IMG/VR virus record: IMGVR_UViG_2603880214_000004
Coordinates: 1 to 64,000 of that record
Length of the DNA stretch: 64,000 bases
DNA from: a virus
Lineage: Duplodnaviria > Caudoviricetes
Direction: 5' to 3' (one strand)
The first letter of the stretch is position 1, and each line of letters begins with the position of its first letter. A program made the translations under genes and the position numbers. Below the pieces are notes generated by a model that saw only the letters and a program-made list of their open reading frames with translations, did not search any database and was not told the origin of the DNA. Below are positions 418-32,740 of the stretch, in pieces.

Positions 418-602
418 GATATTTCCCCTCTCCCTGGTATGTATTTACAATGAAATATTTTACATATTTCGTTCTGATAATTCAATCATATAAACAAAAA
501 GTAAGATTTCTTAACTAAGCATAACAAAAACAGTTACAACTATTTTGTCATATTTTGTCGAAGGAAAATAAAAAGCACTCATAAGAGTGCTTATCCATAA
601 AT

Positions 603-3471: not shown

Positions 3472-4344
3472 GTGAAGAAATTAGCGTTAATTACAGGTAT
3501 AAATTATCGAGGCAGTAAATATGAGTTAGGGGGCTGTATAAACGATGCATCAATGATCTTAAATACGCTAGTTAAAAAATTTGATTTTAATCAGTCTAAT
3601 ATACAATTACTTATTGAGGAAGTAGCGACTAAAAAAAATATTCTCAAAGGACTGGAATGGCTAGTTAATCAACTAGAACCTGGGGATATTGGATTATTTA
3701 CATACTCGGGACACGGAACACAGACAGCGGATTTGCCACCAATTGATGAGGAAGATATGTTGGATGAAGCTATTGTACCCATCGATGCACTTGCTGACCA
3801 ATCTAATCTTATTAGAGATGATGAAATTAATACAATACTATCTAACATACCTAAAGGTGTAAAATTTGTGGTTATTTTGGATAGTTGTCATTCTGGAACT
3901 GGTACAAGGAACTTTGGTAATTATTATTCTATTCCGCAAGCGCGAACTATTGAGGATGTAAAAGCAATAATTAATAGTTTTAATAACGTTGAAAGAAGAG
4001 ATTTATCAAGTATTAAACCTCGTTACATTCCTCCAACCCAAACCATTCAAGACATAAAAATGATTATGAGTGGTTTTGAACCTATTAGAAAAGACTTTTC
4101 ATCTTTTTCAGGACCGAATCATATTTTATTAGCAGGATGTAAAGCAGATCAAGTATCATATGATGAAGGTACATATGGCCGTTTTACTAAAGCATTAACT
4201 GACGTGATGGGAAGCCAAAGTGCAATCACTTATAAAGAGTTATATTTCTTAGTAAGAAATATGGTTTTAGAGCGCTCAAATTACGCTCAAGAACCTCAAT
4301 TAGAGGGACCTGATGATTTAATAAACTTACAAATTTTCGAATAG
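3472..4344 (+). CDS. Caspase-family (peptidase C14, metacaspase-like) protease
   Basis: GCINDA, YSGHG (catalytic His), LDSCHSG (catalytic Cys), QEPQLEG. Confidence 0.92.
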   Translation: MKKLALITGINYRGSKYELGGCINDASMILNTLVKKFDFNQSNIQLLIEEVATKKNILKGLEWLVNQLEPGDIGLFTYSGHGTQTADLPPIDEEDMLDEAIVPIDALADQSNLIRDDEINTILSNIPKGVKFVVILDSCHSGTGTRNFGNYYSIPQARTIEDVKAIINSFNNVERRDLSSIKPRYIPPTQTIQDIKMIMSGFEPIRKDFSSFSGPNHILLAGCKADQVSYDEGTYGRFTKALTDVMGSQSAITYKELYFLVRNMVLERSNYAQEPQLEGPDDLINLQIFE

Positions 4345-7550: not shown

Positions 7551-8339
7551 TTAATTGTTGAAGTATTCATCTTGAATACGTTGAGAATATATCGCCCCTA
7601 CTTCTTCAAAAATTGATAATAACTCATCATATGTATTCTCATCATCACCAATTTTGTTCCATAATTCAGCTCCAATAAGTACACATGGGTCATAATCCAT
7701 CTCAAAAAGCGCAAAAGGAAGTTTATGTGATTGACTACGATACAAATTTCCTTCTCCCGCTGGATTATAAGGTAATCCAAAATAAGCTTCATATCCTTGA
7801 TCGCTTGCAATTAACCTGAACATATTTTTCTTGGCAAGTTCAGTTTGATCTAAATTAGGTTTTACAGTTTTGAAACTATAGAATTCTTCTGTACCATCTG
7901 TTCTCCGAATATATAAATCACTTTTTACTAAGAAATTTTGTGTTATTGGGTTATTTAAAGCTAAAATCTCTGTAACTTCCTCTTCCCAATTAGGTAAACG
8001 ATTCCTAGAACGTTGTTCTCTTAAGATGGTATCAATTTGTTCAGAACGCCATGTATTTATGGTAACCTCTTGATCATATTGATTTTCTGCAAAAGCGCCA
8101 GCTCCTTCTGCAATGATTTTTCCTATTTGTTCAAAAATGCGTTGCCCCAATGTTGTAACAAAACTTCTTTCAAATTTAGATCCTTTCCAGACTTGACTTG
8201 GGACTAGATGAAAACCAAAAGGGTTTTTTGAAGCAATCTCAGTTTGGTTGAATGGTTCTTTTACAGTTCTTTTATGAATTAGTTTCTCCATAACTTCTGC
8301 TAAATGGTTTTTAATCTGCTGCTTCGTATGTTCATTCAT
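7551..8339 (-). CDS. Type II restriction endonuclease, TdeIII-like
   Basis: FERSFVTTLG, SDLYI..FKTVKPNLDQ, LPYNP; downstream of a C5 MTase. Confidence 0.75.
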   Translation of the reverse strand: MNEHTKQQIKNHLAEVMEKLIHKRTVKEPFNQTEIASKNPFGFHLVPSQVWKGSKFERSFVTTLGQRIFEQIGKIIAEGAGAFAENQYDQEVTINTWRSEQIDTILREQRSRNRLPNWEEEVTEILALNNPITQNFLVKSDLYIRRTDGTEEFYSFKTVKPNLDQTELAKKNMFRLIASDQGYEAYFGLPYNPAGEGNLYRSQSHKLPFALFEMDYDPCVLIGAELWNKIGDDENTYDELLSIFEEVGAIYSQRIQDEYFNN

Positions 8340-8407: not shown

Positions 8408-9502
8408 CTATGTTTTTAAAGTTTTTAAGATTGCTCGTCCCATAACTTCTGCTAAACGGACAGGGACAGCATTACCTATTTGAGTATATTGCTTGCCAAG
8501 TGTACCTTTAACTATATAATCTTTTGGAAATTCTTGAATTGCTAAATATTCTTGTATACTTAATGCACGATCTTCATAAGGATGTCCTAAATTCGTACTT
8601 TTTTGTGTTGGTGAAGTCAATACTGTTGGAGATGGCTTATTTACATTTACTCGACGAAAGAAACCTACTTTACCACCACCACTTGTGTAAGCTCCCCCCA
8701 TAGCTTCTTTTACAACATCTTCAGGGAGATCCCGCCAATTTCCACCACCCAGAGGAATCATTTGCATATACTTTAATCTATCCTCAGAATACTCTTGATA
8801 ATTATGTTCTTCAACTTTTAAATTTTCTAACACTTGCCCAACCGTTCTCCAAGGTAAAAGACCATTATTTCCATTCTTATTATGAGTCGGTGTTGGAAAA
8901 ATAAAATCTCGATTTAAATCTTCCCTAATTCCAACAATAAAAACACGTTCGCGAGCCTGTGGAACGCCAAAATCTGCGGAATTTACTAAAGTTGGTGTCG
9001 CGATGTTGTATCCTTCAAATCGGTTAAGTAAAAAGCGCAACGCACTGCCCTTAGTTTCTTCCTCTGTTAAAGGTGGAAAACCTTCTCCTTTTTCTTTTAA
9101 CGGGCGATTTTTTAATGGTGAAGATAAAAGCCCTTTTACATTTTCAATTAAAAATGCTTTAGGTTGTAATTCATGTATTAAATCAACAAATTTTAACATT
9201 GCTTGTCCTCTAGGATCATTAAAAGCCTGTCTTTTCCCGGCTGTACTAAAACTTTGACACGGGCTTCCACCAAATAATAAATCAATTTCTTCACTTTCTC
9301 CGAGGTTAGCATCTTCTCTAACACGAGAAGCATTATATTCCATTATATCCCCTTGTTTAATATTCCAATTAGGATTGTTAATTTTTAACGTTTCACAATA
9401 AACAGTTTCAAGTTCAACTGATAATTTAACATCAAAACCAGCACGATGAATCCCTAAATCTAATCCACCAGCACCAGCAAAAAATGATATTGCTATTGCC
9501 AT
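8408..9502 (-). CDS. DNA (cytosine-5) methyltransferase of the R-M system
   Basis: FAGAGG, GSPCQSFS, ENV, QARER, QIGNAV motifs. Confidence 0.95.
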   Translation of the reverse strand: MAIAISFFAGAGGLDLGIHRAGFDVKLSVELETVYCETLKINNPNWNIKQGDIMEYNASRVREDANLGESEEIDLLFGGSPCQSFSTAGKRQAFNDPRGQAMLKFVDLIHELQPKAFLIENVKGLLSSPLKNRPLKEKGEGFPPLTEEETKGSALRFLLNRFEGYNIATPTLVNSADFGVPQARERVFIVGIREDLNRDFIFPTPTHNKNGNNGLLPWRTVGQVLENLKVEEHNYQEYSEDRLKYMQMIPLGGGNWRDLPEDVVKEAMGGAYTSGGGKVGFFRRVNVNKPSPTVLTSPTQKSTNLGHPYEDRALSIQEYLAIQEFPKDYIVKGTLGKQYTQIGNAVPVRLAEVMGRAILKTLKT

Positions 9503-9897
9503 AATAAACACCTCTTAATAATCAATAAAAATACTATAACATGTTTTAATTTATCGGTCCACTAGTTTATTTATATGGATAATTTTAACACTTTAAATTT
9601 AATAACAATCTTTTTATTAAAGTATTATTCAAAATTAAAAACATTATCATCATAAAGGAAAAAAGAAGAAGTATTGTAATATGATAACTATTCATATGTT
9701 TATTTACTTCTTATAAGATAATGTTATCATTCATTCTTAAGCTTTTTTCCATTTAGATGTTATTTCTTTTTTGAAAAGGATGTTATACCTTTTTATAACT
9801 ACTTAATACGTATTAAAAGGTATAATGTGCACATTACCTAAAAAAACACCCAAAGGTGCCCTGAATCATGTTATTTTGAAATAATTATATTATTTAT

Positions 9898-24063: not shown

Positions 24064-24693
24064 ATGGGGCAAGGTAACCGTGGAATGGCATTTGAAATGC
24101 TTATCAATCTAGCGAATGAAATGTATCAAAGAGGGGGAGTGGCGCTTATTAACAAGCGTCCGACTCCTGTGAAGGTGTTAAAGAGCAAAGGTAGCCGTGT
24201 ACTAAATGGATTCTATGAAGCAAAGAGCACAGTAGACTATGATGGTGTATATAAGGGGCGAGCTGTAGCATTTGAAGCGAAGTCTACAGAGAAAGATACA
24301 CGTTTTGATTTAAAGAACATTGCACAGCATCAATTGGATTACCTGGAGAAAGCGGAGAAGATGGGAGCGATATGCTTCTTCCTTATAGAATTCAGTAAGG
24401 ATAAGTCAGTATTCGCAGTGCCACTATCAGTCATTCAATCTTATGTAAGGATGTCTCATCAACCGAAGGGCAAGAAGTCTATACCAAGAGCAGACTTTGA
24501 TATTTATGGGTATTTAGTAGAACAGACAGAACGAGCGCCGATTGATTACTTGCAATATGTTGACGAAGTAGTAGCACCAGTCATGTTTGATGGAATGATT
24601 CAATTTGATCAGGACTATCAAAAGGTAGCGAATAATATTGAAGCAGCAAAAGAGAAGATGGCCAACAAGAAATGTAAATTATTAAGGGTTTAA
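24064..24693 (+). CDS. recU: Holliday junction resolvase RecU
   Basis: NRGMAFE, KRPTP, STVDYDGVYKGRAVAFEAKST, HQ. Confidence 0.92.
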   Translation: MGQGNRGMAFEMLINLANEMYQRGGVALINKRPTPVKVLKSKGSRVLNGFYEAKSTVDYDGVYKGRAVAFEAKSTEKDTRFDLKNIAQHQLDYLEKAEKMGAICFFLIEFSKDKSVFAVPLSVIQSYVRMSHQPKGKKSIPRADFDIYGYLVEQTERAPIDYLQYVDEVVAPVMFDGMIQFDQDYQKVANNIEAAKEKMANKKCKLLRV

Positions 24694-24831
24694 TGGATAA
24701 CGGAACCTTGCATGGTGGATGGTAGGCACTATTCGCTATGCATGTTTCCCTTATTCAACAAAGAGATAGTAAAATTTCACGTACCTGATGTGAATGTAAA
24801 AAGACAAATTCAGAAATAGGGGGATTCCTTC

Positions 24832-25218
24832 ATGGAGAGACAATTAACATTATTACCGACTATTGATAGAGAGACAGAAAAACAGGTTCAGAAAGAAGTA
24901 GTGAAAATACTAAAGGAATACCGCGCATTAAAAACTCGTTTTGAGAATGAAGTGGAGTTACAACACGAAGGAATCAGTTTGTTTCCAGAGATTAGGGACA
25001 CGAGATATATTAGCAATATCAAGTTCAAGCAGATCGATAAGGCTTTAGAGTACGTTTTGGATTATGACGAGGCTGAGATCATCAAAAGGAAGTACCTAAA
25101 TGCAGATAAACCGAAAGACAGCTTTATTTACACTGAATTATCGATGAAGAAAGATCACTTCTATTATAAGAAGAAAAATGCGATTCGATTGATCGCGACA
25201 TCTTTAGGGATGATTTAA
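24832..25218 (+). CDS. ArpU-family late transcription regulator
   Basis: EAEIIKRKYL..DSFIYTEL..YYKKKNAI. Confidence 0.85.
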   Translation: MERQLTLLPTIDRETEKQVQKEVVKILKEYRALKTRFENEVELQHEGISLFPEIRDTRYISNIKFKQIDKALEYVLDYDEAEIIKRKYLNADKPKDSFIYTELSMKKDHFYYKKKNAIRLIATSLGMI

Positions 25219-25278
25219 TAATACAAAAAAAGCCAAATTAACAGTTTTTAATTAACTATCCATTTGGCTTTTTTTGTT

Positions 25279-25617
25279 TTATTTTTTAGGCATCCATGTA
25301 TGTCCGCAATTCATGCAACCATTAACAATATTTTTTCTACCAACAAATCCACTGAATAAAATTATCGGTGGTCCTAGAAGTACAATAAGAAGACCAACAA
25401 TTGCAGAAAGTCCAACAACTCCATCCATAGAATTTCGAGGAACTATAACATATAAAAAATTAGAAACTATTCCAATAGTTATAAGTGTACCTAACAGAAG
25501 AAACAGAATAAAAAACGCCCTTTTGAAATTATAACCACGCTTATTACCGACTATTTGATCTGATTTGCATTTCCTACAAACCACGCGCTTTGTTACTTTT
25601 TCTTTTTGTACCGTCAT
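25279..25617 (-). CDS. Membrane protein with split Zn finger
   Basis: CRKC - two TMs - CMNCG. Confidence 0.65.
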   Translation of the reverse strand: MTVQKEKVTKRVVCRKCKSDQIVGNKRGYNFKRAFFILFLLLGTLITIGIVSNFLYVIVPRNSMDGVVGLSAIVGLLIVLLGPPIILFSGFVGRKNIVNGCMNCGHTWMPKK

Positions 25618-25819
25618 GTCTAACCATCCTTGCTTTTTATAAAATTATAATAGCTTAATTATATGATATTATTACCTGAACTGGATACAAATATTATCAA
25701 AAAAAGAAAAAATATAATAAATTGGAATGTTTATGTTTTTAAAAACTTCGACAAAATACCGACAAAATTGGGGACTAAATAGGGGGAATTTTGATAATGA
25801 AATCAACGATATTCTTAAT

Positions 25820-26622
25820 GTACAAGCCCTTTGACAAACGCATATCGAAGAGGATTAGTACACCTATAAGTGAAACGTTCTTATGCGAGAATGTCACGGT
25901 AACGTATACCGCATAGTAGGGCGGGCAAGGCGGTACGAACCCGCGTTAAGACGAAAAGACCAATGAATGTATTACAATGACATATTCCAGTGTGGCGGGT
26001 GTGAGATAATTCGCATTCGTCATGCTGTTTCTATTGTATTTATCAATCAGCTCGGAATGCGTCCTCTGGGTTGATAATAAATATAAGTCTATTTCTCTCT
26101 AATATATTGGTTCTTGAAAATGGAATGGGGGTGGTTGCTCATGATTGAGTGACACTTGCATTCTAAAAAGCTAAAAAGTATACGTATCTCGTACGTTAGT
26201 AATTACTCACGATTCTTATTAATGACCAAAACGAGGGCAAAGAGTTCCACTCTTTGTTTGAGCCAATACAGCGGAAACATTCCCCTTCCGTCCCCTTAGT
26301 GTATTGGTTCAAACAAGGGGTCGGAAGAAACATATACGTCTTGGATATAAATCCTTTATAATTCGATATTGGTCAGCGGAGGCCTTGCGACAGCTGATGT
26401 ATTGACCGACTCTACGGAGTATAAACGAGAAGATTCCTAGTCTTCTCCCAGCCACCGAACGTAAAGCGCGTAGCTAATAAGAGCTAAAAAATTATATGAT
26501 GCGGTGGCTTGGAGAAGGTTGAGAGTTATCAGCCTTGATCTAAGAGAAACTTTTGCCATTTGTTTTCTCTCTTTTCTCCCATCCCCTTGAAAGCTGTCAC
26601 TTCGGCGATGGCTTTTTGTTTT
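25820..26622 (+). ncRNA. Candidate large structured RNA (~800 nt)
   Basis: No credible ORF; at least 8 stems rich in G-U pairs; ends in a cUUCGg terminator. Confidence 0.6.
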
Positions 26623-26691
26623 GTGAAGAGGATTGTATCTAATTATGTCGAATATAAGTATTTGCATAAAATGCACAAGGGAGATGGAGAA

Positions 26692-27057
26692 ATGGAAAAT
26701 TTAGAAACCGCAGAGATTAAAGAGCGTTTAGAATTCCTTGAGTTTAGACAAAAATTACTTTTCGAAAACACAGATTTATCTAGGTATTTATTTGAAATGG
26801 AAGTAACAGAAGAGCAACTTAAACGTATTTATAATTTGATGGATGCTTTGCGTGAAGAGATACGTGAAGAAAAACTTGTAACACACAGCGCATACGAACA
26901 ACAGATTTATGAAATAGTTCCTGCGAAACGTGGCAATTATCACTTTGCGGAGAGTATTTCGCAACTTTTACATGAGGCAAGACGTTGGCCAGAGGTATTT
27001 GAACATGTTTATGGTAGTATGGAAAAATTCAAAAATTATTTAAATAAAGAAGAATAA
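26692..27057 (+). CDS. DUF1878 (YhaI-like) protein
   Basis: ERLEFLEFRQKLLF; RBS GGAG. Confidence 0.6.
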   Translation: MENLETAEIKERLEFLEFRQKLLFENTDLSRYLFEMEVTEEQLKRIYNLMDALREEIREEKLVTHSAYEQQIYEIVPAKRGNYHFAESISQLLHEARRWPEVFEHVYGSMEKFKNYLNKEE

Positions 27058-27195
27058 TGTCAACAAAAGCATCCATAACGGGTGCTTTTTTCTTTGTTAT
27101 ATAGAAATTACACATTAAACGTATTTAAATGCTGTTTTAGGTATAATGTCAATTGACTCATCCTGGTACAGATAACAGATGATTTTCTATTTAGA

Positions 27196-27402
27196 TTAGA
27201 TGTTAAATGTACCGTGAAACTCTTGGAAATACAATGCTGGAAAAGGATAATGATATTGGTGTATTACGGGATAAGGCGGAATTGTAGGAGTAAAGGGTAT
27301 GTGCCCAGGATGCATACCATACTGACCATATGAAGGATATTGAGGTAAATGTTGCCAAGACGAAGCTGGAGCTACAACAATCCTCATCGGTAAAGGATTC
27401 AT
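27196..27402 (-). CDS. Pro/Tyr-rich small protein, spore-coat-like
   Basis: Composition; RBS AGGAG; CATA-type -10 upstream. Confidence 0.55.
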   Translation of the reverse strand: MNPLPMRIVVAPASSWQHLPQYPSYGQYGMHPGHIPFTPTIPPYPVIHQYHYPFPALYFQEFHGTFNI

Positions 27403-27774
27403 AATATAATCACTCCTAAAGTAGTATTCATGTAATAGGGTATGCGCTCACTGAATATAGATGTGCACAATCTAGGCCTATAAACATAATAATTAACGAA
27501 CAGAAAATATGGTTACTGATCTTATGATGTGTCAATTATGGGTGTTTTATTTTACCATGTAGATGGAACAAACATGTGTATAGCAATTATTGTAGGCGCT
27601 GCTGTGATCTGGGTGGCGTCTTGTTTGTTGTTAAGGAAAGATAAGGGGTGAGGGGACTTGCAATTTGAAATATTATTAGTCTAAAAAACAAAACATAGAC
27701 TAGTAAACAAGCTGTTTTCACCGTTTATTCATAGAATATGATGAATTCTATTTTTAGAGGAGGGAATCATATCT

Positions 27775-28494: not shown

Positions 28495-29088
28495 ATGATA
28501 TTTGGTTATGCGAGGGTATCAACAAAGAAGCAAAGTTTAGATATGCAGTTGGATGAGTTGAAGCGATATGGTTGCGAGGAAATCATAACTGAAAAAGAAA
28601 GTGGCGCGAAGAAGGATAGGAAAGAACTTCAACTTCTTCTTGGTAAACTTCGCAAGGATGATACATTAGTTGTTTATAAACTGGATCGCTTAGGGAGGAC
28701 AATGCATCAACTTGTTAATTTACTTCAAGAATTTAATGAAAAGAGTATTCACTTTGTTTCTATTAAAGACGGAATTGATACATCTACAACAATGGGAAGA
28801 TTCCTATTTCATATATTTGGTGCTATGGCAGAAATGGAACGCGAAGTAATTAATGAGCGTGTTATTAGCGGTGTAGCTGCTGCTAAAGCAAGAGGAAGAG
28901 AAGGTGGAAGAAAGAAAGCTCATACTCCTCAACAAATACAAGGCATGATGGAAATGCTTGCTTCTGGTAAAACAAAAGTTGAAGTGTGTGAGATGTTCGA
29001 TGTAGCTCGTGCAACCCTTTATAGGTATATAAAAGAACATGATTCTAAACAATCAGTTTTAAATGCTGAGGAGGGTAAAAATGAATAG
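28495..29088 (+). CDS. Serine recombinase (resolvase/invertase)
   Basis: GYARVST, KLDRLGR, C-terminal HTH. Confidence 0.95.
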   Translation: MIFGYARVSTKKQSLDMQLDELKRYGCEEIITEKESGAKKDRKELQLLLGKLRKDDTLVVYKLDRLGRTMHQLVNLLQEFNEKSIHFVSIKDGIDTSTTMGRFLFHIFGAMAEMEREVINERVISGVAAAKARGREGGRKKAHTPQQIQGMMEMLASGKTKVEVCEMFDVARATLYRYIKEHDSKQSVLNAEEGKNE

Positions 29089-29506
29089 TAGAGTGGAATT
29101 CGAACAGAATCGCACGTATTACTTGAAGATGTTACCTAAAGAGTGTGCAAATTGTGGAGAAACAAATGATTTAGATATACACCATATAGTTCCATTAGCG
29201 AAAGGTGGCACGAATCGAATTAGTAATTTGGTTATGTTATGCCTTGAGTGTCACGGGAAAATACATGGCGTTAATAGGGTTAAGCATAAGGAATTGCAAA
29301 GACTGGGAATTGAAAAGGCAAAAGAACGCGGTGTATATAAAGGAAAACCGAAGAAATACACTGAGACAAATGAAAGTATGAAACAAGCTTTGGATTTATT
29401 TAAAGGTCGTAAGAATAATGGTTATACCGTAAAGAGGATATGTACCGAAACAGGTGTTAGTCGTACTGTTTTGTATGAAATAGCAAAAGAAAAAGGAATA
29501 GTTTAA
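29081..29506 (+). CDS. HNH endonuclease fused to a resolvase-type C-terminal arm/HTH
   Basis: CANCG..HHIVP..N..CLECH; GIEKAKERGVYKGKP..VSRTVLY. Confidence 0.8.
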   Translation: MNSRVEFEQNRTYYLKMLPKECANCGETNDLDIHHIVPLAKGGTNRISNLVMLCLECHGKIHGVNRVKHKELQRLGIEKAKERGVYKGKPKKYTETNESMKQALDLFKGRKNNGYTVKRICTETGVSRTVLYEIAKEKGIV

Positions 29507-30529: not shown

Positions 30530-30561
30530 AAAACTAATAGAGCCTATGTGAGGTGGTGGTT

Positions 30562-31476
30562 ATGGCTAGACAACGTAGCCCGGACAGAGATAAAGCATTT
30601 GAAATATATAAAGTAAGTAAAGGTGAGAAGCCATTAATTGATATTGCTGCTGAGTTAAACCTTAAGCCTTCGCAAATCAGAAAGTGGAAATCACAAGACA
30701 AATGGGATGAACAAATGAATGGTAACGTTACTATTGCGAAAAGGAGCGTTACTAATGTTAAAAATCCCAAAACGAAAGAAAAACTGAAAGAGATTTTAGA
30801 AGATGAAGAGTTGACCGAAAAGGAAAGGCTCTTTTGTTTGTATTATGTGAAATACTTCAATGGTACACAAGCTGCACTGAAGGCTGGATACTCCAAAGAC
30901 GGCGCTCATGTACAGGCTAGTCGATTGCTAAGACGTGAACGAGTTTCTTCCTATATAAAAGAGCTTAAAGGTGAGTTAATCGAGAATGTATTTGTGGAAG
31001 CGATGGATGTGCTTAAAGAGTACATTAAGATTGCTTTTGCTGATATTACTAACTATGTAACCTTTGGACAGAAGGAAGTACCTGTAATGGGGATGTTTGG
31101 CCCGATGAAAGATGAATCCGGTAAAGAAATAACTCGTATCATAAATTATGTAGATTTACACGAGGCTGACATGGTTGATGGTTCTATAATAACCGAAGTA
31201 AAACTCGGAAAAGATGGCGTGTCAGTAAAACTTGCTGACAAGATGAAAGCACTGGACAAACTATCACAGTACTTTGACTTAGTACCTGACAATTTCAAAC
31301 GTAAAATCGAAGAAGAACGCCACAAAATGCAGATGGAAGTGCAGAAAGCTCAAATTGATAAAATTAAAGCAGATACTTCTCGTATTAAAGGTGATGAAGG
31401 TGAAGAGTATGAAGATGACGGATTCATCGATGCGTTAGAAGGTAAAACAGCAGAGGTGTGGGAAGATGAAACTTAA
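30562..31476 (+). CDS. Terminase small subunit
   Basis: N-terminal HTH; FNGTQAALKAGYS. Confidence 0.9.
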   Translation: MARQRSPDRDKAFEIYKVSKGEKPLIDIAAELNLKPSQIRKWKSQDKWDEQMNGNVTIAKRSVTNVKNPKTKEKLKEILEDEELTEKERLFCLYYVKYFNGTQAALKAGYSKDGAHVQASRLLRRERVSSYIKELKGELIENVFVEAMDVLKEYIKIAFADITNYVTFGQKEVPVMGMFGPMKDESGKEITRIINYVDLHEADMVDGSIITEVKLGKDGVSVKLADKMKALDKLSQYFDLVPDNFKRKIEEERHKMQMEVQKAQIDKIKADTSRIKGDEGEEYEDDGFIDALEGKTAEVWEDET

Positions 31477-32740
31477 ACCTGCCCCTTTTAAATTTAGACC
31501 ATTCTCAAAGAAACAATTACAAGTACTCACTTGGTGGAGAAAAGATTCACCTGTGAAGGACCATGACGGCATTATATGCGATGGTTCTATTCGTGCTGGC
31601 AAAACTGTTTCGATGGCTCTTTCTTATGTTATGTGGGGAACTGAAACATTCAATGGTGAAAACCTAGGTATGGCAGGTAAAACAATTGGATCACTGCGAC
31701 GCAACGTAATTACTCCATTAAAGAAGATGTTAAAATCACGTAAATATAAAGTGAAAGACCATCTATCAGAGAACATGCTTACCATTAGTAAAGATGGCCA
31801 TACGAATCATTTCTATATATTTGGTGGTAAGGACGAATCATCACAAGAACTTATCCAAGGTATTACATTAGCGGGTATGTTTTTTGATGAAGTTGCTCTT
31901 ATGCCACAAAGCTTTGTGAACCAAGCGACAGGACGTTGTTCTATTGAAGGCTCAAAGTATTGGTTTAACTGTAACCCTGCCGGCCCGTATCATTGGTTCA
32001 AACTTGAATGGATAGATAATAAGGAAGACAAGAACCTGCTACATATTCATTTTACAATGGACGATAATCTTTCTTTATCTGAAAAAGTGAAGCAAAGATA
32101 CTATCGTATGTATAGTGGAGTCTTCTTTCAACGCTTCATTTTAGGTTTATGGGTGCTTGCAGAAGGTATTGTATATGACATGTTTAACAAAGAAAAGCAT
32201 GTTGTAAAAACAGTAGAAAGAGAATACGAGAAGTATTATGTATCTTGTGACTATGGTACACAGAACCCTATGACATATGGACTATGGGGATTGTGTAAAG
32301 GTATATGGTACAAAACAAAAGAGTACCATTATGATGGTCGTAAAAATTCACGGCAAAAGACAGATGATGAGTATCTTGACGACCTAAAAGAATTTATCGG
32401 AGATATTTCTATTCGTGGAATTATAGTTGACCCATCAGCAGCTTCATTTATTGCTTTATTGAAAAAGAATCGATTCAAAGTGCTTAAAGCTAAGAATGAA
32501 GTTATAGATGGCATAAGAAATGTAGCGCGACTTCTTAATGAAGAGAAGATAAAATACAACGACTGCTGTAAAGAAACATTCCGTGAATACGCTTCTTATA
32601 CTTGGGATGAAAAAGCTACAGCTCGTGGTGAAGATAAACCAAATAAAGAGAATGACCACCAAATGGATGGTGATCGTTACTTTGTAAATACAGTTGTTGT
32701 AACTAATAACAAAGCTAAGGCTGTTAAGTCAATCTATTAA
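31466..32740 (+). CDS. Terminase large subunit, PBSX family
   Basis: GSIRAGKT, DEVALMP, DYG, DPSA, DHQMD. Confidence 0.93.
   Translation: MKLKPAPFKFRPFSKKQLQVLTWWRKDSPVKDHDGIICDGSIRAGKTVSMALSYVMWGTETFNGENLGMAGKTIGSLRRNVITPLKKMLKSRKYKVKDHLSENMLTISKDGHTNHFYIFGGKDESSQELIQGITLAGMFFDEVALMPQSFVNQATGRCSIEGSKYWFNCNPAGPYHWFKLEWIDNKEDKNLLHIHFTMDDNLSLSEKVKQRYYRMYSGVFFQRFILGLWVLAEGIVYDMFNKEKHVVKTVEREYEKYYVSCDYGTQNPMTYGLWGLCKGIWYKTKEYHYDGRKNSRQKTDDEYLDDLKEFIGDISIRGIIVDPSAASFIALLKKNRFKVLKAKNEVIDGIRNVARLLNEEKIKYNDCCKETFREYASYTWDEKATARGEDKPNKENDHQMDGDRYFVNTVVVTNNKAKAVKSIY

Follow-up and report, generated by a model that had tools for sequence, protein, structure and literature searches.

What occupies the stretch of roughly 800 nt, free of open-reading frames (ORFs), that separates the late-gene activator gene arpU from the packaging genes in the Bacillus prophage IMGVR_UViG_2603880214_000004 (Caudoviricetes), and what might it do for the phage? 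The record, a 72,872-bp IMG/VR provirus (CheckV completeness 100%), was analyzed over its first 64,000 nucleotides, hereafter the window. A reading made from the letters alone (the sequence-only reading) had proposed that the stretch is a G-U-rich structured RNA, either a member of the GOLLD or ROOL classes or a new one, expressed late. Folding, a consensus structure and ORF tests delimit a structured, ORF-free late-leader RNA of ~818 nt at 25805-26622 on the + strand, situated between an ArpU-type late promoter and the packaging genes. No Rfam 15 family reached its gathering score anywhere in the window, and a permissive scan of 25500-27200 (E <= 10) returned 12 weak matches, mostly to terminator or microRNA models, with none to GOLLD, ROOL, OLE, EAR, a riboswitch or an intron; riboswitch, T-box and known leader models gave no match, and generic terminators matched only weakly. 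Full-text searching of the literature found no description of this RNA. It is a family absent from Rfam and a new class of large phage RNA, set apart from the Bacillus cereus-group repeats bcr1-bcr18 by description only. The sequence-only reading is partly supported by this outcome: its suggestion of a new class of large phage RNA was largely right, while membership of GOLLD or ROOL found no match even at E <= 10.

The absence of coding capacity was examined in the window and among homologues. The longest ORF in the stretch has 48 amino acids, no longer than in shuffled sequences (mean 63), and for each of its three longest ORFs just 5 of 41 homologues keep the frame unbroken; length differences among the homologues are mostly non-multiples of three. 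The stretch is therefore ORF-free, as had been claimed, and has no conserved ORF. The minimum free energy of the + strand is -262 kcal/mol, compared to -207 +/- 7.3 for shuffles (n = 20; z -7.5), and that of the - strand is -202.8 (z -2.5), in agreement with the strand-specific, G-U-rich structure proposed earlier. Since the opposite strand would have C-A mismatches in place of the conserved G.U pairs, the constraint acts on the + strand RNA and not on the DNA.

A consensus structure of 166 pairs was obtained with RNAalifold from 42 distinct full-length sequences, in which 95.4% of cells are paired. Compensatory changes were found in 53 pairs (285 cells), while 300 column shuffles gave means of 31.6 pairs and 65.5 cells and maxima of 38 and 85; sliding the partners by one to three columns left no more than 19 pairs and 61 cells with two-sided changes and lowered pairing to 42-47%. 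Two deeper alignments of single regions gave the same picture. Across 25980-26092 (73 sequences, 33 pairs, 99.5% paired), 8 pairs and 60 cells carried compensatory changes, a level reached in 0 of 500 shuffles and by at most 2 pairs in slid controls. Across 26405-26625 (65 sequences, 42 pairs, 93.5% paired), the counts were 20 pairs and 88 cells, again with 0 of 500 shuffles as high and at most 13 pairs in slid controls. Covariation among homologues thus supports about ten helices individually, within a fold of about a dozen.

These results bear directly on whether the element acts as DNA at all, for instance as an origin, a packaging site or a recombination site, or is instead a degenerate coding region or one of the bcr1-bcr18 repeats without a role of its own. 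Several copies occur per genome and modules are shuffled among phages, as might be expected of such an element, and bcr repeats average about two copies per strain, some of them predicted RNA elements, according to two reports (PMC6542083, PMC3446304). Against this, folding is strand-asymmetric, the conserved G.U pairs would be mismatched on the other strand, compensatory changes preserve the pairs and no ORF is conserved; listing as a bcr repeat would in any case supply a name and not a function. We consider an explanation of this kind highly improbable. The likeness to bcr repeats, which were compared by description only, is that both are intergenic and specific to the B. cereus group. The repeats are described as 100-400 bp long, and one module of the RNA may overlap a bcr repeat. 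The repeats of groups B and C are described as low in copy number (PMC6542083, PMC3446304, PMC6199540).

Homologues of the RNA are abundant within a narrow taxonomic range. In GenBank, 22 records match, 20 of which are named Bacillus phages; the best are 0105phi7-2 (83% identity over 85% of the query), IEBH, LY4, 250, PfNC7401 and PfIS075, and in all of these phages the region is an unannotated gap of ~0.9 kb. The 3' third is found as well in Waukesha92, BMBtp3, BceA1, phi4J1 and others, where it stands behind a sigma-like late factor according to record annotation, not ArpU; the 5' part is not common to these Waukesha-type phages. Between its end motifs the RNA measures 706-963 nt in relatives. 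Scanning IMG/VR with a 15-nt C-rich motif gave at least 115 loci, with 76 of the matches listed being true homologues by blastn, and scanning with the motif of hairpin H1 (described below) gave 83 loci, which together with the earlier loci make 76 distinct sequences. By BLAST, 44 of 71 genomes of the genus of the B. cereus reference contain a match, often several per genome. Matches were found in 5 of 251 genomes of an order-level sample, all five from the B. cereus genus set, and a covariance model of the 3' core (R1, 140 positions), which finds one copy in the window's own record at 166 bits, matched 3 of 151 genomes of a class-wide sample, all from the same genus set. No homologue outside the B. 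cereus group was found in the genomes searched at order and class level.

Several observations on individual relatives were made along with these searches. H1 by itself (query positions 162-213, ~85% identity) is present in three genomes (G044, G045, G071) that are without the rest of the RNA, which suggests that modules of the RNA circulate separately. A strict gapped-pattern scan of contigs returned two loci, one of which is an 865-bp contig of Chryseobacterium proteolyticum at a coverage of about 1; a Bacillus phage RNA on that contig is most likely assembly contamination. In 0105phi7-2 the locus tags skip from 0105phi72_077 to _079 exactly across the RNA region, where a gene call was probably removed by the annotators. 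A term search of the genome paper for this phage found none of the words 'non-coding', 'noncoding' or 'ArpU', and the paper leaves the unannotated gap undiscussed (PMC10219371).

The consensus fold begins with a 5' domain (25827-25961, + strand, as are all elements of the RNA below) of short helices at 25829-33/25846-50, 25870-81/25888-97, 25909-12/25921-24 and 25930-33/25941-44, predicted by RNAalifold from the 42 sequences; the domain is highly conserved and 93-100% paired, with few double changes. It is followed by H1, a near-invariant, G.U-rich hairpin of 18 bp formed by cagtgtggcgggtgtgag and ttcgcattcgtcatgctg (25988-26005/26010-26027), and then by UUUCUAUU. H1 is 99.8% paired in 72 distinct sequences, with eight pairs varying on one side only and none on both, and G.U is found at 6 of 15 consensus pairs in most of 73 sequences. 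Conservation of the 5' domain and H1 is too high for more than a little covariation in the former and for any in the latter. Hairpin H2 (26034-26086), composed of 26034-43/26077-86 and 26047-56/26065-74, has compensatory changes in 8 of 18 pairs, and a small hairpin, CUCA-UGAU-UGAG (26138-26149; stem 26138-41/26146-49), has them in 3 of 4 pairs (24 cells). A three-codon mini-ORF (AUG AUU GAG UGA) behind a G-rich segment resembling a Shine-Dalgarno (SD) sequence was considered and set aside, as hairpin covariation is the better explanation. The hairpin at 26194-26224 (stem 26194-202/26216-24) carries a conserved 13-nt loop, UUACUCACGAUUC, with compensatory changes in 5 of 9 pairs; its pairing figure of 82.7% is too low because of misaligned variants. 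The palindrome AGUAAUUACU, considered as a kissing site, was rejected, as one half of it belongs to the stem and the other to the loop of an ordinary covarying hairpin. The long hairpin at 26246-26325 (24 bp, 26246-26270/26300-26325), which contains ctttgtttgagccaataca/tgtattggttcaaacaagg, is 97% paired and shows compensatory changes in 12 of 24 pairs (91 cells).

The 3' domain (26427-26588) is the most widely shared part of the RNA and the source of model R1. It consists of four helices, namely Hb (26444-48/26511-15 and 26450-57/26502-09), which has compensatory changes and includes ccagccaccg/cggtggcttgg (26448-57/26502-12); Hc (26459-62/26468-71), whose compensatory support was read from the alignment without a separate pair count; Hd (26516-22/26529-35), which has compensatory changes and corresponds to the stem aaggttga/tcagcctt (26515-22/26529-36); and He (26543-49/26564-70), which has compensatory support. 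The stems that the sequence-only reading had named, its tandem repeat and its cUUCGg terminator were all found where it had located them.

Beyond these local helices, the two ends of the central and 3' parts are probably joined by a long-range closing helix between the G-rich segment GGGGGUGG (26127-26134) and CCAUCCCC (26579-26586), partners that lie ~450 nt apart. This helix is 87.6% paired among homologues, with exchanges of GU and AU pairs, two compensatory cases (L155, L157), bulged variants and also a few mismatches. A second closing helix is proposed tentatively between GAGAAG (26427-32) and UUUCUC (26573-78), where a local hairpin, itself showing an A-U to G-C exchange in eight sequences, is a competitor. 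An alternative fold of the 3' domain, with the local hairpin 26427-33/26441-47 and 26511-15/26575-79, is 92.9% paired with 18 double-change pairs, compared to 93.5% and 20 for the fold given above, and the data fit a mixed model in which the inner three pairs of the local hairpin are followed by Hb. The 3' strand of both closing helices is a C-rich motif, UUUCUCCCAUCCCCUU (26573-26588), which lies 2-5 nt ahead of the terminator. Among 76 distinct sequences found with an unrelated motif, it is exact in 44, present as a variant in 28 and missing from 4.

The RNA ends in an intrinsic terminator at 26589-26622, a cUUCGg hairpin (stem 26592-600/26605-13) followed by a U-run. Compensatory changes occur in 6 of its 9 pairs in the 42-sequence alignment and likewise in 6 of 9 in the 65-sequence alignment, where 91-94% of cells are paired; in all 65 sequences the terminator is either kept, with covariation, or swapped for another at the same place. 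An antiterminator in which the C-rich motif pairs with the terminator's 3' strand was considered on a reading of the sequence and judged too weak at only 5 bp. In a separate observation, the last ~60 nt (26563-26622), comprising the pyrimidine- and C-rich stretch and the UUCG terminator, have look-alikes of ~85% identity at one conserved chromosomal locus in four B. cereus-group species (L224-L227), between a 71-amino-acid ORF on the opposite strand and a downstream ORF on the + strand. These chromosomal look-alikes had no Rfam match and may represent the 3' end of a host small RNA (sRNA), or a terminator, that the phage RNA shares or mimics.

This arrangement of motif and terminator raises the possibility of a trans-acting sRNA, in which a single-stranded C-rich motif, CUCCCAUCCCC, would pair with the G-rich SD regions of host or phage mRNAs. 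C-rich sRNAs of Firmicutes of the RoxS/RsaE type pair with such regions. The motif is the most conserved element and adjoins the terminator, as sRNA seeds often do, the look-alike locus in the four B. cereus-group genomes counts in favor of this role, and there is a likeness to StxS, an sRNA described as the product of termination at a phage late promoter (PMC7547250). The motif is, however, internally paired in the consensus fold, and 750 nt of conserved upstream structure would be left unexplained, so that we regard this role as unlikely.

The arpU gene of the window (24832-25218, +) encodes a late-gene transcriptional activator of the ArpU/Ltr family (TIGR01637, 46.9 bits; cut-off 43.1), and of 70 distinct loci, 67 have an ArpU homologue in the 1.3 kb upstream of the RNA, on its strand and at distances of 29-967 nt. 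In the window, four direct repeats phased at 11 bp, CGACAAAAT, CGACAAAAT, GGACTAAAT and GGGGAATTT, occupy 25749-25792 (+), the first two being exact tandem copies (25749-57 and 25760-68), so that the location after arpU and direct repeats is as previously described. They are followed directly by GATAAT (25793-25798, +), read from the sequence as a -10-like hexamer. The transcription start would then be expected at ~25800-25806, and the predicted start lies ~14 nt upstream of GUACAAGCC. From the hexamer to the conserved GTACAAGCC there are ~21 nt, a spacing kept across three promoter types. The 67 ArpU proteins of the 70 loci form eight clusters, each with its own repeat types, for example GCGAAC or GCAGAGAAA in one, CGGATAAA or GGAACAAA in another, and CGACAAAA and CCGAGAAAA in others. 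For ArpU, RinA and LtrC, Quiles-Puchalt et al. showed experimentally that the activator binds direct repeats located immediately distal to its own gene and that the late (terS) promoter needs these repeats (PMC3753634). The repeats at 25749-25792 are probably the ArpU recognition sites of the late promoter.

Two tandem arrays of the ArpU type are present in the 64-kb window (0.32 expected), and the one at 25749-25792 is the sole array on the + strand; IEBH, 0105phi7-2 and phi105 each have one array per genome, ahead of the RNA or of its phi105 counterpart. This context supports the RNA as the leader that would be transcribed first from the phage's only ArpU (Ltr)-type late promoter, and late expression from this ArpU-box promoter is what the sequence predicts. 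As an observation apart, the second tandem pair in the window, CGACAAAAT/TGACAAAAT at 542-560 (-) with 10-nt spacing, is found close to the provirus's left end, where a terminator immediately precedes it and an ORF for an Excalibur/LPXTG surface protein (1-417, -) lies downstream; it is without the G-rich third and fourth repeats and without GATAAT. It could mark an ArpU-controlled accessory gene or be due to chance.

The Bacillus subtilis phage phi105 (L223, 3075-3445) offers a side view of the same arrangement. Its ArpU homologue has 49.6% amino-acid identity and is followed by repeats phased at 11 bp, TCGACAAAT, CCGACAAAA, GGGGACAAA and GGGGGAGAAA, and then by a ~300-nt ORF-free leader that has AGUAAUUAC and CUCU-CGGAGUAUA...AAG...AUUCUUA in common with the window RNA, in the same order; the first repeat recurs once more immediately ahead of ORF18 (~4283). 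R1 found nothing significant in phi105 (best 11.5 bits), and the minimum free energy of the leader has a z of +0.3. With two short shared motifs as its basis, the leader was not accepted as an established homologue, and it may be a miniature relative.

Should ArpU drive the late genes here as it does elsewhere, the single + strand array means that late transcription must cross the RNA and its terminator. On the + strand ahead of terS at 30553, terminator-like hairpins are found at 26589, 27065, 27594 and 29515, and in IEBH (L001) the + strand terminator-like hairpins at 4193 and 5337, ahead of its terS, are near-identical in sequence to those at 27594 and 29515 of the window. We therefore propose, with a probability of roughly 40%, that the RNA gates late transcription in cis, as a very large element of the put or EAR kind whose terminated part would be a discrete RNA. 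Late transcription toward HNH, terS, terL and the structural genes would pass through the RNA and its terminator, and the folded RNA, alone or with a factor, would let the polymerase read through its own terminator and the later terminator-like hairpins before terS by processive antitermination, as HK022 put and B. subtilis EAR do. Terminating polymerases would leave a discrete and probably abundant late RNA of ~800 nt, comparable to the lambda pR'-tR' 6S RNA. The transcription start, late timing, read-through and antitermination activity in this proposal are all inferred. The proposal draws on the link to ArpU, the single array, the several terminators before terS and the keeping or replacement of the terminator in relatives, as well as on the same 3' domain following a different, sigma-like late factor in BMBtp3 and BceA1.

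A number of points weigh against such a gate. At ~800 nt the RNA is far beyond the size of known RNA antiterminators, and no alternative pairing that competes convincingly with the terminator was found. Covariation of the closing helices is weak, and support for the C-rich strand is biased, some of the sequences having been gathered by means of that very motif. Promoters of sigma-A-like type may lie downstream of the terminator, and the unit of promoter, RNA and terminator is a self-contained cassette that fits a free-standing RNA gene equally well. In the RNA-library data no transcript was observed, and these data count neither for nor against a discrete one. A 1,746-nt contig from RNA-library run X1 covers 24800-26268, and a contig from run X3 covers 25016-26624 before passing into different DNA; both include flanking genes and may be DNA carry-over, and assembled contigs cannot reveal transcript ends. 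In the two raw-read runs tried over the RNA region, X21 gave no reads and X23 none outside 27062-27148.

The self-contained cassette leads to the second explanation, a free-standing, trans-acting large non-coding RNA of the GOLLD or ROOL kind, made late from the ArpU promoter and released at the terminator. Such an RNA would act as a folded particle, whether homo-oligomer, scaffold, decoy or sponge, and the late genes would be served by leaky read-through or other promoters. This is a serious possibility, a little less likely than the gate and short of an even chance. Its size of 0.7-1.0 kb with many covarying helices, its compact fold with long-range closing pairing, its cassette-like boundaries and a hyperstable UUCG terminator that is always present would all suit a released particle, and the RNA, with 83% nucleotide identity to 0105phi7-2, shows stronger conservation than the adjoining ArpU (61.6% amino-acid identity). 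The 3' domain is widely shared and the 5' part variable, as described for GOLLD (PMC12286853). It is opposed by the lack of an Rfam match, by the absence of tRNA genes nearby (ARAGORN found none in the 64-kb window) and by the lack of a second ArpU array for the late genes in four phage genomes, which would leave these genes without a known activator site.

Position at the 5' end of the late transcript would also suit a passive leader, one that leaves transcription unaffected and serves only the protection or processing of the late mRNA, for example by blocking 5'-3' decay through RNase J1 or by acting as a processing platform. In Bacillus, G-rich segments of the SD type are known to stabilize 5' ends, and some relatives have an extra 5'-terminal hairpin. 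An intrinsic terminator separates the RNA from the mRNA to be protected, however, and both size and conservation are excessive for a stabilizer; we consider this role very unlikely. A broader proposal joins the gate and the particle: the RNA would join GOLLD and ROOL as a third class of giant ornate phage RNA, unrelated to either and, in contrast to them, with a known place in the phage program, as an obligatory ArpU/Ltr late leader serving either as an RNA-only license for late transcription (a large put-like antiterminator) or as a particle released at the terminator. We regard this as somewhat doubtful.

Upstream of arpU lies a RecU gene (24064-24693), and between arpU and the RNA is an ORF for a membrane protein on the reverse strand (25279-25617, -). 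Downstream follow a small gene just 3' of the RNA (26692-27057, 121 amino acids, with a weak DUF1878 match at E 0.002, below cut-off), a resolvase gene (28495-29088), the HNH gene (29063-29506), terS (30553-31476) and terL (31466-32740). Phage sequences are homologous from ~25820 as far as 26624, and the neighbors of the RNA cassette differ among relatives. The small gene lies inside a cassette of its own, 26624-27067, flanked by two terminators; in one related contig 350 unrelated bases take its place after 26624 and homology returns at 27067.

A conserved element at 27065-27150 (+), in which a terminator hairpin is followed by TATATAGAAATTACACATTAAACG and next by TAGGTATAATG, whose -10 is perfect and whose -35 is poor, lies directly after the RNA terminator in IEBH, LY4 and 250 and after the inserted gene 26692-27057 in the window. 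The raw RNA-seq reads of run X23 pile up at 27062-27148 only, at a depth of ~73 and with unrelated sequence on both sides. This element may be an activator-dependent promoter or a small RNA. In the left arm of the provirus, we noted a gene for a caspase-family peptidase (3472-4344) and a type II restriction-modification pair, a TdeIII-like endonuclease (7551-8339, -) and a C5 cytosine methylase (8408-9511, -).

Large, highly structured RNAs are rare in bacteria and phages; the known classes include OLE, GOLLD, ROOL and raiA along with some others, and hardly any has a known function. The present family is genus-restricted but abundant, and its regulatory context is unusually well defined. Its place, with the late activator on one side and the packaging genes on the other, is constant in temperate siphophages of the B. 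cereus group such as IEBH, 250 and 0105phi7-2, which can be grown in B. thuringiensis. With a defined promoter, a defined 3' end, many covarying variants and a fixed position, its function is testable by ordinary reporter assays and phage genetics. If true, either the gate or the particle would provide the first defined regulatory context for large phage RNAs, in genetically tractable Bacillus phages, and a possible miniature relative in phi105 adds to the interest of this context. For annotation, the family accounts for 0.8-1 kb that is currently left blank or filled with spurious ORFs.

Compared to GOLLD, the RNA is likewise borne by phages or prophages, ORF-free, ~800 nt or more in length and rich in covarying helices. 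GOLLD has a conserved 3' and a more weakly conserved 5' part, and its expression is tied to the lytic phase and rises during lysis (PMC12286853); the 3' domain of the present RNA, which reaches Waukesha-type phages, recalls this division as a resemblance only. It differs from GOLLD in lacking a match to the Rfam model and a tRNA island, in being genus-restricted in our sample and in being wired to an ArpU late promoter and a terminator. ROOL shares with it the character of a large ornate RNA of Bacillota phages and is described as being of unknown function and thought to be protein-independent (PMC12286853). The differences from ROOL are the lack of an Rfam match and another genomic setting; a homo-oligomeric nanocage is a feature of ROOL and GOLLD. 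A tRNA neighborhood is frequent for both of those classes, in contrast to the 0 tRNA genes of the present window.

Among regulatory RNAs, the closest functional comparison is with the processive antiterminators HK022 put (~70 nt) and B. subtilis EAR (~120 nt), the latter of which establishes that the principle of RNA antitermination exists in Bacillus. The likeness is that of a structured segment of the nascent transcript just after the promoter and ahead of the several terminators of a long operon; the present RNA is, however, about ten times larger, has its own strong terminator and matches neither the EAR model nor the two-hairpin architecture of put. The lambda pR'-tR' 6S RNA and StxS resemble it as promoter-proximal terminated transcripts from a late promoter upstream of all late genes, and StxS indicates that such a short RNA can be functional in itself (PMC7547250). 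In those systems the promoter is constitutive, the protein Q antiterminates and the RNA is simple and at most ~200 nt, whereas here the promoter would be ArpU-dependent and the RNA is ~800 nt and ornate. With the Ltr, ArpU and RinA promoters it shares an ArpU-family gene followed by two to four direct repeats, with one such promoter per phage, and the repeats of those systems stand directly upstream of terS in the phages studied (PMC3753634). In the present phage ~0.8 kb of structured RNA and 3.9 kb of further sequence intervene, and the picture of the Ltr/ArpU late operon changes to one in which the activator would act ~4.7 kb from terS, through a structured RNA and several terminators.

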